64,000 nucleotides of DNA from Microcoleaceae cyanobacterium (GTDB lineage: Bacteria > Cyanobacteriota > Cyanobacteriia > Cyanobacteriales > Microcoleaceae), in assembly GCA_051652765.1 (NCBI GenBank), contig JBOFUV010000052.1, positions 1 through 64,000 of the forward strand, given 5' to 3'. The notes below the pieces were generated by a model. That model saw only the letters and a program-made list of their open reading frames with translations. It had not been told where the DNA came from and did not search any database. Every line of letters begins with the position of its first letter. The stretch's first letter is position 1. Positions 26,313 to 37,121 of the stretch are shown in pieces. The translations under genes were made by a program, and so were the position numbers.

Positions 26313-26795
26313 TCAAACCAAATGATAAAGGATTGTACCCGTTTCCTGGTCATTCCCCATATCCAGGAGCCCGTCTTTATAGAGCCGACTTAAAAGCTGC
26401 TTGACTTCCTGAATCGGCTTTTCTGTGGCCAAAACACACTCGGCTACAGAGACTCCTTGAGGATGATCTTTCGCAAGCTTGAGAATTTTATACGTGTCTG
26501 ATTTTTGAACGTTGGGAGGGATTTTTTGCTTTAGATCTTCGACCTGATCTAGAACCAATTCATGGGTTAAATAGCTCTGACCCACTTGTGTTTGAGCCAG
26601 TTGATATTTTAGATTTTCCTTGTCTACCATCCCTGGAATGAAAAACAAATCCAGAAATTGGCCAATGCCCAAGAACCCCCCAGTTACCAGCCAGATTATG
26701 CCTGAAATATATTTTTTTGAATAAAACCGATGCAGACCACAAACTCCAAAGAAGCAGCTACACCAAAGCAAATAAGCCAATCCAGTATTTCTCAT
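26313..26795 (-). CDS. TM2/NINE domain membrane protein
   Basis: 'AYLLW...GLHRFY..K..SGIIWL.TGG.LGIGQ..DLFFIP.MV'. Confidence 0.85.
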   Translation of the reverse strand: MRNTGLAYLLWCSCFFGVCGLHRFYSKKYISGIIWLVTGGFLGIGQFLDLFFIPGMVDKENLKYQLAQTQVGQSYLTHELVLDQVEDLKQKIPPNVQKSDTYKILKLAKDHPQGVSVAECVLATEKPIQEVKQLLSRLYKDGLLDMGNDQETGTILYHLV

Positions 26796-27450
26796 TATTC
26801 CTTCTCCTACCTTAGACAAAGCTTGTACTTTGACTCAATCATGCAAGATCTACTCGGCATTTGATATCCTTCAACGGAGTCATCCAAGTCGGTGATACCA
26901 AATAACCCTTGTCTACCATTTTACCAATGTGCAAGTTTCAACCTAGAGTTATGAGCCTTGAATTAAGTACAGTTTAAACAGTTCTACATCTCGATTTCTA
27001 GGAAATCCGGAAAGAAAACCAGTCGATTTATTGCTGTTTATAATTATTGCTTTTGATAAAAGGGATGTCAGTAGGCATAATTAATTAGAAGACCCTCGGC
27101 GATCGCCTGGGATTAGGCAAAGGCTAGGCAAAGGCTTTGTGTTTAAATTGATTAATTCCCCCTACTGATCAACAATTGTGATGACACTGAGGAACTTCTA
27201 AATCTATCCGGACGGCAAGAGACGTGAAACGAATGAACTTAAAAACTCTTGCGGCAGCAAGCTTGGTTGTAAGCGGTCTCAATTCTTTTGGGACAATTCT
27301 TTTGGGAAACCCTATTCAAGGCAGTGAGTGGATAGATGATTGTCAAAATTGACTTCTGGCCGCTACTCTTCTATGTTGAGTAAATCCAGATCGGGGTGAA
27401 TTCTGCAATCTCTACTACTGACATTACTAAATCTCCCCCTAGGGCATCTC

Positions 27451-28473
27451 ATGAAAAATATCCTCTCCCATCTTGCCGCCTTTCAAGCCCATGATATTGA
27501 CTGGATGATCACAACGGGCCAAATTGTAAATTTATATGAGGGCCAGACTTTAGTTGAAGCTAGCACTCAATTTGAGGCATTGTACATCCTGCTGGATGGC
27601 AGTTTAGTGATTCAAGTCCCATCCACTTCTATTCATACTCAAGGCCAAGAGTTTACGCAACTCTCTCCTGGAGAATTGATTGGAGATCTATGCTTCATTG
27701 ACCGCAAGCCAGCAGCAATTACAGTCAAAGCCCTGAGCACCTCTCAGATTCTCGCCTTGCCTCAGTTAGAACTTTCAAACAAGCTGAGGGTTGACATCAC
27801 CTTTGCGACCGCATTTTATCAAACCCTGGCGAGCCATCTCTCGAGCAAGTTACGAGCGTTGTCAGATTTATTAGCTCGGAATCGAATCGCGTCTAGTCCT
27901 TCTCTGCAAAAAGTGTTGTTTGTATTTGCGATTCTCAACGATAGCGACTTAGATTGGATGATTACCTATGGAACTCGAGAAGCTGTAGGAACAGGAACCC
28001 CAATTATTGAGGCAGGTCAGGTAGTCGAATCGATTTCGATTTTGTTGGAAGGCAGCCTGGGAATTTTTATTCCAACAACGGTTGATGAAAAGCGCTTAGA
28101 TCTTGCGATCGCCAAGTCTGTTCCTGGAGAAATTCTGGGAGAAATGTCCTTTGTCGAAACCAAGAAAGCTTCGGCAACGGTTAAAGCGTTGGAAGACTCG
28201 CTCTTACTCACCTTGCCGCAAGAACTGCTGATGGAAAAAATGCAGCAGGATCAGGGGTTTTGTATGCGGTTTTATCTGGCGATCGCCACAATCCTGGCAG
28301 ACCGACTCCGCACCCAGCTCTGTAGCTATAAGCTGGGACAAATTTCCCCGAACGGGACTGCCCTTGTACTCAACTCCTCAGAGAATCATCAGGAACTGGA
28401 CTTTGCCGTGCTGGAAACAATGGCGATCGCTGGAACTCGGTTTGATTGGATGTTTAAGCGACTCATGAGTTAA
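27451..28473 (+). CDS. tandem cyclic-nucleotide-binding domain protein (bacteriocin-transport-associated type)
   Basis: Two cNMP domains ('DIDWM...GELIGDLCFID' and 'DLDWM...GEILGEMSFVE'), C-terminal 'AG.RFDW'. Confidence 0.8.
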   Translation: MKNILSHLAAFQAHDIDWMITTGQIVNLYEGQTLVEASTQFEALYILLDGSLVIQVPSTSIHTQGQEFTQLSPGELIGDLCFIDRKPAAITVKALSTSQILALPQLELSNKLRVDITFATAFYQTLASHLSSKLRALSDLLARNRIASSPSLQKVLFVFAILNDSDLDWMITYGTREAVGTGTPIIEAGQVVESISILLEGSLGIFIPTTVDEKRLDLAIAKSVPGEILGEMSFVETKKASATVKALEDSLLLTLPQELLMEKMQQDQGFCMRFYLAIATILADRLRTQLCSYKLGQISPNGTALVLNSSENHQELDFAVLETMAIAGTRFDWMFKRLMS

Positions 28474-33013: not shown

Positions 33014-36000
33014 CTAGGAATTAGGATACAGTCGAGCGACTGAAAGCGTAATCTCCCCCAAGTTGTCCTCCTTGTAAGTATCAATAAAGAAGGCATAAAG
33101 GGTCGTGGTTTCCAACACCTTCAAAGTCAATGCTTCACTGTATCCATTTAAGCTTGACCAAGTTCCAGGGACAGGCATATTAGTTTTCTGGTTCATCACT
33201 CTTCCCCCATTAATCCAGAGTAAAACCACGGGCTCCCCAGAATAACGTTGACTCGAACCGTAACTAAATTTACCTGCCTTGATCCGTAATAAGTAAATGC
33301 CGGGTTCCAAGGTTTTAGCAACTGCAGTTTCCTGGAGTTCTCGGACTTGCTCTGGGCTCAAGACGTAGCAATTGTTCTGGCTATTGACCGTGAGATGCTC
33401 GATCTTACATCCTTCCCGTTGGGTTGCTTGCTCAATGGGATAAGAACGAGCCGTAGTAGCCTGCTCTGCTGGACGAGACCAAACACTTCCAGGGATTGTT
33501 GCCCCTGTCGCTGCCCCTGTTGCCGCTCCTGCCAAGCCCATTCTATCCAGTTGAGTAGTCCCCGAAACACCAGGTTCTGAGAGACTAGACTCTGAGAGAT
33601 TAAGCCCTAAGAGATTAGGGTCTGAGAGGTCACCTGTAGGAGGCAGTCGCATAGACTTAGAATAAGCAAGCTGCACCCACTGGCTGTCTGGAGAGAGGTA
33701 ACCAATTTCTGCAATGTAGTCGCGATCGCTCACCGGGACTGGCACCGTGATTTCTTGCACCACCTCATCACAGTCATAGTAATAAATACTGTGGGCAGGT
33801 TGGGTTTCAGGGTCAATGCCCGTAATATCATGAACCCGCAGTTGAAACTGTTGTTCGGCTTGTGTTTTGGCCTGCTCCCGTTCACTGGCAGGCACCATCC
33901 AGGAAACTGACATCAGATCCGGATCTGCTGCAGAAGACTGTGAGTCAATAATTCTCACTTGGCTTTGGGTTGACAGAGAAGCAGAACCCAGAGGGGCGAT
34001 CGCCGCCATCACTGCTGCGTTCGTATTCAGAGGAACTGTTGCGGGAGGAAAATCAGGGCTCCATGAGACTGCTGGAGACAACTCTGGAACCCGAACCGAA
34101 TTGGAGCGAGCTAGAGGCATCCACTCATGTTCAATCGTGGTGTAGCCAATTTCTGAAATGTAATAGTGATCCAGATGGGGAACCGGAACTTGCCATTCTT
34201 GATCCACATCATCATTGAATTCATCACAGTCATAGACCTGAACACTGTTGGGGGCCTGGATATCAACATCAACATGGTCGATATCATAAACCCGCAACTG
34301 CAACTGCTGGCCGCCCTGCTGTTTGGCTGCATCTCGCTGAGATTGAGGGAGATGCCAACGGGCGCAAACACTCTGCTCATCCTGGGTTTGCAAAGTCATC
34401 CGACAATCAGACTCGATCAATTCATGCTTGAGCAAGAAAGCGTCTGTGGTCGCCCCAACGAGCCCCGTATCGATAGCCGCTCCAACTAAAGTGCCTGGTT
34501 CAGTTCCAGTTATTGTTCCTGAACCAGTTATTGTTCCTGAAGTTGTTCCTGAAGTTGCTCCTGAAGCTGCTGAACCAATGATGCCTGAACCCACAATACC
34601 TGCACCCACAATACCTGCACCAATTGCAGCTCCGCCCAAGGCTCCCCCTGGAATACCTGGGCCTGATTCTACAGATGAAATCTGTGGATCTACAGCCTCC
34701 GTTGGGCCGGTGATACCTGAAAGAACTCGCATTGAATTAGAACGAGCCAAAGGTAACCAAGTTCCATCTTCCGCTAAGTAACCAATTTCGGCTAGATAGT
34801 CTCGCTCTGGATTTGCAACTGTAATTTGCCCTTCTCGATCCAAGACATCGCAATCATAGGACTCCATATAGTGGGCGGGCTGGGTGTCAAAGTCAATTTC
34901 AGTGACATCATAAACTCGCAATTGGAAATCACGGCCACCATAGTCTCTAGCTGCCAATTTATCTGCGTCTGCCGCCGTCCAATAAGCATTGACTGTTTGG
35001 CCCTTACCAGGAGAAAGGTTCAGACGGCTATTGCGATCGCGCAAGGCCCAAGTGGCCAACCCAGCCGCTCCCGCTATCCCGGCCAAACCAGCCGTTCCTA
35101 CCAGTCCAGAATTGATCGTAGGAATGCCAGAATTGACTCCGGACGTTGAGGAGAAACCACCATCTGAAATCCCGGCAGAGGTCTCAATGGGTAATTCCCC
35201 AGTAGGTAAGTCCTCAAGGGGCAAGTCCGCAACAGGTAATTCCTCAACCGTTGGAGTAACAGCAAACTCGGGAGGAAGGGCAGTTTCCGCCTGAGTCGTG
35301 ACAGTGGCATTATCTGTTGGGGCCACTCTTGGTGCTGGTGGAATGATTTGATCTGTTGTTCGGGGTTCAGGGCGAGCCGGAGGAACAGGTCTAGCCTCGA
35401 CGGGTTCTTCATCCTGGCCCCGCAGCAACCACCACAGTCCTGCTCCTAACACAGGCAGTCCCAACAACCACAGTAGCCACCAGGGAAAATTACTCCTAGC
35501 ACTATTGACTTCACGAGTTTGGGTAGTGGTTGCCTGGGAGGTCTCCGCTGTTCCTGTTGAATCTGGCACGGCTTCAGGGGGAGTTACAACCTCTGGAGAA
35601 GCAGCAGGGGTAGTCACAGCCTGTGGAGGAGATGATTCTGCCTTCGGAGAAGGAGAGGAAGTTGGTTGGGGGGCTGGCTTTGGAGCAGTGGCCGCAGCAG
35701 CAACACTAGCTGCAGTTGCGGTTTTAATCGCTGTTTTTCCAGCATCCGAGGTCATCACCCCCAGAAAAGCCAGGGTTTCTGGAGTTGCTTTGTCCTTGTG
35801 GTAGACATAGCCGCGATATTGAGAATAGGGATAGCGCGGATCATCCGGTAGGGTCTTGTGCATGGCGATAATCCGGACGTTATTTTGATCCAGGACTTGA
35901 TCGGCGATCGCATAGCCAATGCCATCCTTCCCCAAGGCTTTAATCACAGCATCGGTTTCATCTTCATTCACCCGAGTTGTGGTAGAGCCCGACCTGAAGG

Positions 36001-36628
36001 GAGTTCCTTCAAAGACTTTGTAGCCACCCAGGGCCCGTCGAGTATCGCTGGATTCAGGACGATCGACAAAGTTAACCTTGGCAGACTCTCCGCCAACTTC
36101 TGACCAGTTGGTGATCTCACCTCGAAACATTTTGGCAAATTGTTCGAAGGAAACATTGCCCTTGAAGGGATTTTCAGGACTCACAATCACGGCGATTTTT
36201 CCCCGGTCAATCGGAACTTCAACGAGTCCTTGAGCTTTTTGGGCATCAGTCAGGGGACGACCAACGGCAGCAATATCAATATCTCCTTTGAGCAGAGCAT
36301 TGATGGCTTTTTGGCTATCTTGGGTTGTGGCTTCCACCTGAGCGCTGGGAAACTTTTCGGTAAACTGCTGTCTGAGGGCCTGATTCAATACAATCATGCT
36401 GCTGGTGCCATCAATTTTGACGATGGCATTGTCAGGCAACGTGTTAGGCAGAGGAAATTTTGCAGGAGCTTCAGCTAAAGCAGGCTCAAGCCAGGAAAAT
36501 GCTTGACCTTCCATCACTTCGCCGGAGTTGAGGGGCAGCGTTATGGGGGCCGTTAGGAACTTTGGAGCGGTTGCCATCGCCAGGGCAATGGCTGCGAGGT
36601 GAAGAAAGGTTCTACTTGAACGAGACAT
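33014..36628 (-). CDS. multidomain membrane protein: signal peptide, PstS-like substrate-binding domain, TM, 3x DUF4912, C-terminal beta-rich domain
   Basis: PBP_like 'KIDGTSSM...DIAAVGRPL...W..VGG...RPESSDTR'; TM 'FPWWLLWLLGLPVLGAGLWWLL'; three 'QLRV(Y/H)D...EIGY...LA.S' units; tail homologous to 36726-37121. Confidence 0.8.
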   Translation of the reverse strand: MSRSSRTFLHLAAIALAMATAPKFLTAPITLPLNSGEVMEGQAFSWLEPALAEAPAKFPLPNTLPDNAIVKIDGTSSMIVLNQALRQQFTEKFPSAQVEATTQDSQKAINALLKGDIDIAAVGRPLTDAQKAQGLVEVPIDRGKIAVIVSPENPFKGNVSFEQFAKMFRGEITNWSEVGGESAKVNFVDRPESSDTRRALGGYKVFEGTPFRSGSTTTRVNEDETDAVIKALGKDGIGYAIADQVLDQNNVRIIAMHKTLPDDPRYPYSQYRGYVYHKDKATPETLAFLGVMTSDAGKTAIKTATAASVAAAATAPKPAPQPTSSPSPKAESSPPQAVTTPAASPEVVTPPEAVPDSTGTAETSQATTTQTREVNSARSNFPWWLLWLLGLPVLGAGLWWLLRGQDEEPVEARPVPPARPEPRTTDQIIPPAPRVAPTDNATVTTQAETALPPEFAVTPTVEELPVADLPLEDLPTGELPIETSAGISDGGFSSTSGVNSGIPTINSGLVGTAGLAGIAGAAGLATWALRDRNSRLNLSPGKGQTVNAYWTAADADKLAARDYGGRDFQLRVYDVTEIDFDTQPAHYMESYDCDVLDREGQITVANPERDYLAEIGYLAEDGTWLPLARSNSMRVLSGITGPTEAVDPQISSVESGPGIPGGALGGAAIGAGIVGAGIVGSGIIGSAASGATSGTTSGTITGSGTITGTEPGTLVGAAIDTGLVGATTDAFLLKHELIESDCRMTLQTQDEQSVCARWHLPQSQRDAAKQQGGQQLQLRVYDIDHVDVDIQAPNSVQVYDCDEFNDDVDQEWQVPVPHLDHYYISEIGYTTIEHEWMPLARSNSVRVPELSPAVSWSPDFPPATVPLNTNAAVMAAIAPLGSASLSTQSQVRIIDSQSSAADPDLMSVSWMVPASEREQAKTQAEQQFQLRVHDITGIDPETQPAHSIYYYDCDEVVQEITVPVPVSDRDYIAEIGYLSPDSQWVQLAYSKSMRLPPTGDLSDPNLLGLNLSESSLSEPGVSGTTQLDRMGLAGAATGAATGATIPGSVWSRPAEQATTARSYPIEQATQREGCKIEHLTVNSQNNCYVLSPEQVRELQETAVAKTLEPGIYLLRIKAGKFSYGSSQRYSGEPVVLLWINGGRVMNQKTNMPVPGTWSSLNGYSEALTLKVLETTTLYAFFIDTYKEDNLGEITLSVARLYPNS

Positions 36629-36725
36629 TGTTTTAAGATTTCTAGGGTGGACAAAAATCTGGATGCAAGCGAACTGAGGAGGAGGTGGCAAAGGTTTGTG
36701 ATCGGGGTTGTTCGGAGGATGCTTG

Positions 36726-37121
36726 TTAAATTTTCACTACAGAAATCGTGACTTCACCCTCGTTGTCTTCGAGATAGGTATCAAAGAAAAATGCACAGAG
36801 GTAAGCCGTTTCCAAAACCTCTAAGGTTAGGGTGTCATCTTCCCCATTTAAAGTTGACCAGGTTGCTTCAACTTCAATATTGGTTTTTTTATTAATAAAT
36901 TTTCCGCCATAAATCCACAACATTACCAGCGGTTCACCCCAACGTTCTACGCCGTTACGATAGTTAAAAGAACCGTCACGAATTTTAACAACGTAGGTTC
37001 CGGGTTCTAAGGTACTTGAAACCGCTGTTTCATTTTGAATTTTTTGCATTGCATCAGAACCCAACACGTAGCAGTTCTGCTTGCTGTCAACTTTGAGATC
37101 AGTAATGGTGCAACCTTCCAT
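36726..37121 (-). CDS. standalone 131-aa beta-rich protein paralogous to the C-terminal domain of the downstream gene
   Basis: AAGGAAGG RBS; about 69/130 identities to the tail of 33014-36628 by manual alignment. Confidence 0.85.
   Translation of the reverse strand: MEGCTITDLKVDSKQNCYVLGSDAMQKIQNETAVSSTLEPGTYVVKIRDGSFNYRNGVERWGEPLVMLWIYGGKFINKKTNIEVEATWSTLNGEDDTLTLEVLETAYLCAFFFDTYLEDNEGEVTISVVKI

Follow-up and report, generated by a model that had tools for sequence, protein, structure and literature searches.

A conserved gene pair

The window analysed here is a stretch of 64,000 nucleotides from contig JBOFUV010000052.1 of assembly GCA_051652765.1, a Microcoleaceae cyanobacterium; coordinates refer to it unless another locus is named. 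It contains two genes on the minus strand, separated by a 97-bp spacer (36629..36725), that are the subject of this report. The upstream gene (36726..37121) encodes a domain that we call domain X, as a free protein of 131 amino acids without a signal peptide. The downstream gene (33014..36628) encodes a protein of 1204 amino acids when read from the ATG at its 36628 end; the open reading frame (ORF) tool uses a TTG at 36691 and gives 1225. An earlier sequence-only reading had proposed these co-oriented genes as an undescribed system in which the large protein ends in its own copy of domain X. The alignment agrees: free X matches residues 1072-1200 of the large protein (33029..33415, minus strand) with 69 of 130 positions identical (53%, E 3e-46).

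The rest of the large protein, all of it on the minus strand, also follows the sequence-only reading closely. Residues 1-52 (36473..36628) form a likely Sec-type signal peptide, judged by eye from an A-L-A site at positions 50-52 and from the weak hydrophobicity of residues 7-31 (Kyte-Doolittle values no higher than 1.54). A periplasmic-binding-protein (PBP) domain spans residues 61-305 (35714..36448; Pfam PBP_like_2, PF12849, over residues 68-295, E 4e-30). A Pro/Thr/Ser/Ala linker (residues 306-380, 35489..35713) leads from it to one clear, Trp/Leu-rich transmembrane (TM) helix, placed by hydropathy at residues 383-402 (35423..35482), with an Arg directly after it. Beyond an acidic, Pro-rich linker that is Gly/Ala-rich at its end (residues 405-532, 35033..35416) lie three DUF4912 repeats, at residues 533-641 (34706..35032), 741-855 (34064..34408) and 895-1002 (33623..33946), with a Gly-rich low-complexity linker between the first and second (residues 655-730, 34439..34666). 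Pfam recognizes the three DUF4912 stretches (PF16258, E 2e-64) at 215.5 bits against a cut-off of 29.4; the same scan found no family for either free or fused X.

A scan of GTDB genomes returned 330 X-encoding stretches; the 80 best of them yielded 72 loci, with a bias toward close relatives of free X. Because a co-oriented PBP gene directly follows the free-X ORF in 60 of 67 cases at these loci, the pair is real and conserved beyond chance, and the proposed co-conservation of free and fused X is borne out. The seven remaining free-X ORFs comprise four that lie no more than 370 bp from a contig end, one second free X that precedes a pair, and two true exceptions. The reverse test, counted by hand, places free X directly upstream of 21 of 27 long ORFs that end in one X, part of the long ORFs counted having been checked for a PBP domain; for the other six, free X lies elsewhere in the genome (three) or the arrangement is broken by a contig end (three). 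A second sample, from the window's own order, gave 6 of 7. At L126:791-1703 and L088:8001-8913, free X stands apart from the receptor and adjoins a transposase gene.

The large protein and its relatives are called receptors below. Among the named carriers of the pair are Lyngbya, Okeania, Limnoraphis, Scytonema, Iningainema, Elainella, Leptolyngbya, Nodosilinea, Acaryochloridaceae and Spirulina records, and cultured carriers include Lyngbya sp. PCC 8106 (L042), Leptolyngbya sp. JSC-1 (L069) and Leptothermofonsia sp. ETS-13 (L080). The small protein has its nearest named relatives, at 82-85% identity, in records of Microcoleaceae and Oscillatoriales. The range of X is patchy in unbiased samples, in which only the top candidates per genome were scored: X turned up in 24 of 401 genomes sampled across the phylum, in 37 of 301 from the window's order and in 33 of 57 from a second order. 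The arrangement of three DUF4912 repeats holds for this protein and does not define the family, since the number varies from 0 to 13 among 40 complete single-ORF receptors.

Free X has a history of its own. Across 45 complete pairs, free copies share 65.5% identity with one another, as against 54.6% between free and fused X of the same locus and 53.5% across loci; the best match of every free X (45/45) is another free X, and free X is better conserved than fused X. The free copies occupy one side of a branch in a quick tree (SH-aLRT 83; one change against 30.4 in shuffles), while a broader FastTree groups 26 paired free X at a low support of 0.22, with subclades at 0.91 and 0.92. Because free copies resemble each other more than they resemble fused copies, and have their own branch, free X is, by the measure of these alignments and trees, an old paralogue maintained beside the receptor, without recent spill-over from its neighbour.

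The surroundings of the pair are less regular. In the window, a universal stress protein lies downstream and an MsbA-like exporter upstream, and no kinase, cyclase or permease adjoins the pair, as had been claimed. Both flanking genes were rejected as parts of the system; of 72 related loci, just 1 has the exporter beside the pair. No terminator-like site was found in the 97-bp spacer by a scan that is uninformative, its site count being below that of shuffles, and a scan of the locus for promoters and terminators likewise gave a result below chance. Two other genes in the window have no link to the pair: 27451-28473 (plus strand) encodes a protein of two cyclic-nucleotide-binding domains only, and 26313-26819 (minus strand) a TM2-domain protein with a winged-helix-like tail. 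Elsewhere in the genome there are two PBP-TM-DUF4912 paralogues that lack X (L001:1961-5563 and L002:6395-8446, contigs C15 and C22); such X-less proteins are more widespread than the pair. A DUF937 gene recurs beside the receptor family (L002:8578-9096, L131:8389-8916, L085, L086, L094, L097, L099 and L138). The largest neighbour cluster, at L061:2965-4395 and 12 more loci, is heterogeneous, its members having in common RTX calcium-binding repeats or a trypsin domain.

Domain X and its predicted dimer

A profile search for X over 1.84 billion representative sequences found 183 proteins, and 75 of the 148 new ones were scanned against Pfam. X stands at the end of PBP-TM proteins that have DUF4912 repeats, tetratricopeptide (TPR) repeats or nothing recognizable in the middle. 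It is found also as a tandem X-X in large soluble proteins, which have propeller or other domains besides, and in fusions to lipase or DUF1508. Catalytic output domains (kinase, cyclase, phosphodiesterase) and DNA-binding output domains are absent from the large protein and from the 75 representatives, among which a lipase- or ThuA-like partner of X occurs only in single soluble proteins.

AlphaFold2 models the free-X monomer with a pLDDT of 92 as a beta-sandwich of jelly-roll type with one helix, residues 1-21 having no secondary structure. A single complex prediction, of fused X with free X and two Ca ions, assigns this N-terminal stretch a place. The three runs scored 0.91, 0.90 and 0.91, and the best of three controls scored 0.01; the score mark is attained by 116 of the 157 solved pairs and by 2 of the 215 mismatched ones, proportions that apply only roughly here. 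The runs show 241-248 contacts with at least 97% agreement and a partner pLDDT of at least 89. The interface is a strand swap, in which the arm at about residues 4-22 passes into the partner: residues 8-11 pair with the other chain along its final strand, and residues 16-18 along its strand preceding Asp114. PDB searches found no similar complex, and it is therefore less likely that the score reflects the model's memory.

The tandem proteins bear on the same interface. All 15 X-X junctions, matched by pattern, leave either 11 (6 cases) or 14 (9 cases) residues between positions that the model pairs; these lengths fit a hairpin register and therefore give independent support for the swapped dimer. 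In one genome, G644 (100% complete), a receptor ends in X-X and free X is missing. We considered whether a tandem X-X combines one free-type and one fused-type copy, and FastTree grouping does not support this: the two halves of receptor X-X tails group together, so that these tails arose by a duplication of their own. On the strength of the model, free and fused X probably do form a complex; X would be an obligate dimer, and free X would complete the receptor's tail. The sequence-only reading had the tethered domain either pairing with free X or nucleating a larger assembly. The first part is favoured by the prediction, while the second is not, as the model is a closed, strand-swapped dimer.

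The X fold recalls LecA-type lectins. A fold search with the monomer placed EclA-N second (Z 6.3), PllA fifth (Z 5.8) and PA-IL sixth (Z 5.8), the jelly-roll match covering model residues 28/31-131 at an rmsd of about 3 Å; the part of the lectins' N-terminus that remains unaligned is the part that X takes from its partner. Asp114 and Asn120 are present in 90 of 90 paired X domains, and position 119 is Asp in 87 and Asn in 3. Together they resemble the Ca ligands Asp114, Asp121 and Asn122 given for EclA in the accessible portion of PMC11875179. Differences from the LecA type are a loop two residues shorter, an inserted helix and the predicted strand-swapped dimer. Language-model neighbours of X include PA-IL clusters (0.91, 17% of members).

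Homology at the profile level was sought repeatedly, and all attempts fell short of significance. None of 109 X members matches PF07828 (PA-IL), the best hmmsearch E among 210 domains is 0.004, Foldseek gave nothing on X below E 0.001, and a search of PDB sequences returned nothing significant, its YegP matches coming from the fused DUF1508. Two X-related domains of the relative P0259 do match X, their hhalign score of 27.4 exceeding the shuffled maximum (20.5); they form no bridge to the PA-IL set (12.6 against 17.7). We treat the lectin reading as a lead with about an even chance of being right, and carbohydrate binding by X as putative.

Several observations on X-like and lectin-like proteins are recorded here in their own right. 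PA-IL/LecA-family domains exceed the Pfam cut-off in 10 of 301 genomes of the window's order (L108, L111-L121), the L108 frame having no start codon that covers the whole domain; searches with the cyanobacterial PA-IL domain returned one near-identical protein, no plasmid match and two weak viral matches. P0259, P0273 and P0274 are PBP-TM receptors in whose tail a degenerate X is accompanied by H-type lectin-like domains and by two X-related domains that lack the helix. A lone degenerate X without the Asp/Asp/Asn set converges on a phosphoketolase-like gene in the window's genome (L003:7135-7623, contig C57). Tandem X-X occurs in about 23 of 301 genomes of the window's order by hand count, including soluble proteins of 850-1500 amino acids with a propeller-like region, X-X and a helical tail (L139:5149-8532, L140:3725-7321, L141:5117-9103); some of these have, by eye, a vWA-like start. 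A charged, beta-strand-like motif of 45 residues, with no Pfam match, recurs at the ends of soluble X-X proteins and in the form of repeated short ORFs upstream of these (L137:5262-6278, L138:2359-3206, L132:1128-2569, and L004:6534-7817 on contig C70 of the window's genome).

Probable membrane topology and possible links to glucan metabolism

The nearest solved relative of the PBP domain is Synechocystis Sll0540 (PDB 9L8J, E 3.5e-48). The part of PMC13614923 available to us describes Sll0540 as an orphan S-type PstS-like protein that binds phosphate weakly, is unlinked to the pst operon and has an obscure function. A FastTree groups 81 receptor domains (a set from which truncated PBP-only rows and one duplicate were removed) with the Sll0540-like protein that the window's genome encodes separately, excluding other PBPs (support 0.98). 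The description of the large protein as a PstS-like sensor thus stands as to the type-2 PBP family, and fails as to an ordinary PstS, since the scores lie far below the family cut-offs (TIGR02136, 78.3 against 206.6; TIGR00975, 28.2 against 205) and the phosphate site is altered. Measured against the phosphate ligands of SphX (Ser15-Ser16-Thr17, Thr45, Ser63 and Ser146-Gly147-Thr148), position 123 has Gly for Ser63 in 74 of 81 receptor domains, and position 195 replaces Gly147 in 81 of 81, with Asp in 75, Glu in 5 and Asn in 1; the protein from the window has Gly123 and Asp195. Sll0540-like proteins have Ser-Arg and Ser-Gly-Thr where receptors have Gly-Arg (74/81) and Ser-Asp/Glu-Thr, together with a TM helix and a long C-terminal arm; the window genome's own Sll0540-like protein retains the Gly of the Ser-Gly-Thr loop.

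The other phosphate-binding hydroxyl positions of S-type PstS are mostly retained in the alignment, the family-specific Asp195 is found in 47 of 47 X receptors, and cleft residues including Asp195 and Tyr203 are strongly conserved. The ligand may be phosphate or a phosphate ester, and the domain may serve only as an anchor. By eye, no pst-type permease was recognized among the 30 largest neighbour clusters of the 72 loci. Databases label the relatives as 'phosphate transport system substrate-binding protein' or as DUF4912-, TPR- or substrate-binding-domain proteins; many genes of filamentous cyanobacteria annotated as phosphate transport substrate-binding proteins probably do not encode parts of a transporter.

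Lys and Arg residues around the TM helix number 160 after it and 73 before it over 81 family members, with more after in 54 and fewer in 8. By the positive-inside rule, the receptor tail very probably lies inside, the cytoplasmic placement that had been proposed for it. The PBP domain is likely to be outside, in the periplasm or the thylakoid lumen, which the data do not distinguish.

The DUF4912 repeats, in which some Trp and Tyr residues are invariant, have indirect links to glucan. A model with pLDDT 91 is a sandwich of fibronectin-III (FnIII) or Ig type (Z up to 9.3), the fold predicted for repeat 2 of the large protein; neither PDB sequences nor plasmids gave a match to DUF4912. The sequence-only reading had pointed to DUF4912 genes beside GH57 branching enzymes, and in other classes of the phylum this proved correct: by hand count, a DUF4912 gene lies directly upstream of GH57 in 23 of 27 genomes, the other four being cut by contig ends (three) or not adjacent (one). 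DUF4912 also occurs with Rho_N. A paralogue in the window's genome consists of PBP-TM followed by DUF4912 and the C-terminal part of the Rho_N protein, and the DUF4912 family is called Rho-like, without verification, in the portion of PMC13613805 that could be consulted. Another gene of this genome (L005:1-2138, contig C65) encodes Rho_N-DUF4912 with a very long Ser/Gly/Ile/Thr repeat that runs past the contig end; its relatives have 410-500 amino acids.

A sibling gene provides the second link. It encodes the same PBP family and one TM helix joined to a whole glycogen phosphorylase domain, and at several loci lies directly upstream of free X. A hand count in one order gave such PBP-TM-phosphorylase ORFs of at least 1200 amino acids in 17 of its 57 genomes. 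Each of the 17 belongs to the 33 that are X-positive, and X follows directly downstream in 14 of them; three metagenome contigs show the same order. All 15 PBP-fused phosphorylases compared lack the PLP-binding Lys (EASGTGNMK motif) and the tower segment, and 13 of 15 lack the catalytic-site Arg, while 6 of 6 free phosphorylases keep all three (residue roles as given in the accessible part of PMC11465516). Because of these losses, the fused phosphorylases are, as far as sequence can tell, pseudoenzymes. In four clusters (L080, L147, L148 and L149) the genes extend to an intact phosphorylase, glgP, alongside pgi, gpmA, pyk (pyruvate kinase), xfp (phosphoketolase) or a D-lactate-dehydrogenase-like gene; L203 is among the clusters with genes of glycogen or glycolysis type, a debranching-enzyme-like gene belongs to L146, and L080 encodes an EF-hand protein. 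Phosphorylase-family genes lie near the pair in 5 of 72 loci against 0.38 expected. We lean, by association and by a narrow balance, toward a glucan-related function of DUF4912 and the receptor.

The fusions, of 1200-1700 amino acids, occur at L064:3084-7739, L080:4082-7912, L146:10262-14737, L147:2675-7630 and 11 more loci; three (L153-L155) lack X. A second, far more decayed phosphorylase family without a PBP domain (L138:4453-7482, L158:4158-6788, L159:3413-6511, L160:4369-6780) is 35-44% identical to active enzymes and has lost all catalytic motifs; three of its four members have an N-terminal hydrophobic segment, and the L138 gene converges on a tandem X-X gene.

A possible glycogen anchor and its rivals

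Our best explanation, held tentatively and at somewhat less than an even chance, is that the pair forms a membrane anchor for glycogen or its enzymes that is completed by free X. It draws on the observed architecture and adjacency, the separate lineage of free X, the X-X fusions, the GH57 linkage of other classes and the catalytic loss in the siblings, and on the predicted folds and dimer. A family of single-pass proteins headed by a PBP domain would carry interchangeable, non-catalytic cytoplasmic modules. The arm of DUF4912 repeats would bind glycogen (alpha-glucan) or its enzymes and hold them at the membrane, each repeat being a non-catalytic module for the glucan surface or for a glycogen enzyme, with the number of repeats (0-13) setting reach and avidity. 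X would be unable to fold alone, so that each receptor tail would require a second X; the upstream gene would supply it, capping the tail and preventing cross-links between receptors, and a receptor that ends in X-X would have no need of it. The X dimer may add a Ca2+-dependent, LecA-type sugar site. The outside domain would be a conserved anchor, or a sensor of a ligand that is not phosphate or is bound differently.

A more specific form of this proposal, which we regard as a doubtful extension, has binding-protein-headed anchors holding glycogen granules and breakdown enzymes at the thylakoid or cell membrane, as the counterpart in filamentous cyanobacteria of plant MFP1-PTST2. Their components would be DUF4912 arrays, the dead glycogen phosphorylase and a lectin-like, obligately strand-swapped dimer. 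The free subunit would set the balance between capped and cross-linked states, under control of the outside ligand and perhaps Ca2+. Glycogen in cyanobacteria lies between the thylakoids, and animal STBD1 is a glucan membrane anchor that acts in a similar way. In plants, according to the accessible part of PMC10801857, MFP1-PTST2 positions starch granules at thylakoids; MFP1 carries a Tat signal, contains coiled coils and depends on PTST2 to bind glucan. The likeness is one of mode of action, in that the pair, too, would combine a single-pass anchor, a long arm on the soluble side and non-catalytic glucan handling at the membrane. The pair differs in that its putative binding modules belong to the anchor chain itself and a folded binding-protein domain lies on the far side; a sequence relation was neither sought nor expected.

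A number of results weigh against the glycogen anchor. X itself has no glycogen specificity, because it is present in TPR-tail receptors, soluble X-X proteins and lipase or DUF1508 fusions, and the receptors at L083 and L093, which have no DUF4912, still have a free X. The best fold matches of DUF4912 are generic FnIII domains, with no known carbohydrate-binding module among them. In the window's own class, GH57 adjacency is seen in 0 of 30 genomes. Genes of glycogen metabolism, glycolysis and fermentation, pooled, lie near the pair in 6 of 72 loci against a background of 3.6, taken from random stretches of the window's genome, and 151 of 1000 draws equalled or exceeded the observed 6. The dead-phosphorylase gene is restricted to one order and a few metagenome contigs, in kin that are not independent; the window's genome has two intact phosphorylases and no such fusion; and the glycogen-storage-site stretch of the dead phosphorylases is no more conserved than several other stretches. 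For X, the LecA-type matches tie with the Clp1 N-domain and virus capsids, none reaches Z 8, and the query lacked the swapped arm; against 12 cyanobacterial PA-IL-like domains the hhalign score was 16.2, below the shuffled maximum of 16.8. As to capping, a pair of homologous X domains could score as a homodimer would, which makes heterodimer and homodimer indistinguishable by score, and the X-X tail without free X rests on the one genome G644.

Two rivals are improbable to a similar degree. In the first, the receptor is a one-component signalling protein, in which ligand binding alters how receptors pair by their X tails, free X is a competing cap or a released messenger, and the varied tails are docking sites for downstream proteins. 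It would fit the constancy of PBP domain and terminal X around a varying middle, the conserved cleft with its Asp195, Tyr203 and most of its phosphate hydroxyls, and the higher conservation of free X over fused X. Catalytic one-component receptors such as sensor kinases and diguanylate cyclases likewise join an outside ligand-binding fold to one TM helix and a cytoplasmic tail; they differ in having the enzymatic or DNA-binding output that the 75 representatives lack. The linkers on both sides of the helix, about 75 residues outside and about 130 disordered residues inside, suit a tether better than a piston, and an intertwined dimer with some 240 contacts is unlikely to swap partners fast.

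The second is a scaffold or spacer unrelated to glycogen, in which the FnIII-like repeats would serve to set length and X to clip, the presence of glycogen genes nearby in one order being a local accident. The range of 0 to 13 repeats, the generic fold, the overall non-significance of the neighbourhood enrichment and the many unrelated soluble proteins with X would all be expected of it, and the Rho_N domain of the conserved cyanobacterial DUF4912 protein (PMC13613805) hints at nucleic-acid partners in place of glucan. Against it, two independent links to glucan converge on one receptor family, the GH57 adjacency (23/27) and the dead-phosphorylase tail beside free X (14/17).

A surface adhesin or lectin of inverted topology, with the repeat arm and X facing outward and free X exported without a signal peptide, is very unlikely. 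FnIII-like arrays and LecA-like domains are typical of adhesins, P0259 has H-type lectin domains in its tail, and the Asp/Asp/Asn set resembles a LecA-type Ca2+ site; the signal peptide and single TM helix place the PBP domain outside, the charge bias (160 to 73) agrees, the sibling tails descend from a cytoplasmic enzyme, and the 30 largest neighbour clusters include no recurrent outer-membrane secretion gene. An orphan phosphate-binding protein serving a Pst transporter, with an incidental tail and free X as a leftover of local duplication, is suggested by the PBP_like_2 and PstS-family matches, the database labels and the weak phosphate binding reported for Sll0540 in the accessible part of PMC13614923, and is scarcely credible given the TIGR02136 score, the loss of the Gly from all 81 receptor domains, though not from the Sll0540-like protein of the window's genome, and the age of the free-X lineage (45/45), which largely refutes its last part.

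The pair belongs to none of the systems to which it can be compared, namely MFP1-PTST2, PstS, PF07828 and the catalytic one-component receptors. Like its closest solved outside-domain relative Sll0540, it is unlinked to a pst operon, and it shares with other PF16258 proteins a domain well above the Pfam cut-off, which in this family forms arrays of 0-13 copies along a membrane protein, with X as the cap. The literature searched, outside of which lie most subscription journals and supplements, contains no description of the system, no functional characterization of its architecture and no bacterial protein described as tying glycogen or its enzymes to a membrane; the parts seen of PMC13613805, PMC3610870, PMC12454622 and PMC8147232 go no further than the Rho_N-type protein, homologues of sll0540 or a label reading 'Rho termination factor'. 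The system is real and conserved and appears to be undescribed, its X:X pairing well supported and its role in glycogen plausible but unproven.

Should the glycogen reading fail, a receptor with a free tail subunit would still be a design without described counterpart in the literature searched, and the family gives context to the orphan Sll0540 clade. It adds as further candidates a periplasmic binding domain with a fused phosphorylase pseudoenzyme, and a new domain that would dimerize obligately and whose partner subunit is encoded as a free protein. For the placement of glycogen in bacteria, a question answered in plants by MFP1 and PTST2, the pair and its relatives provide named candidates; if the anchor proposal is true, this would be the first function for DUF4912, a domain conserved across cyanobacteria.

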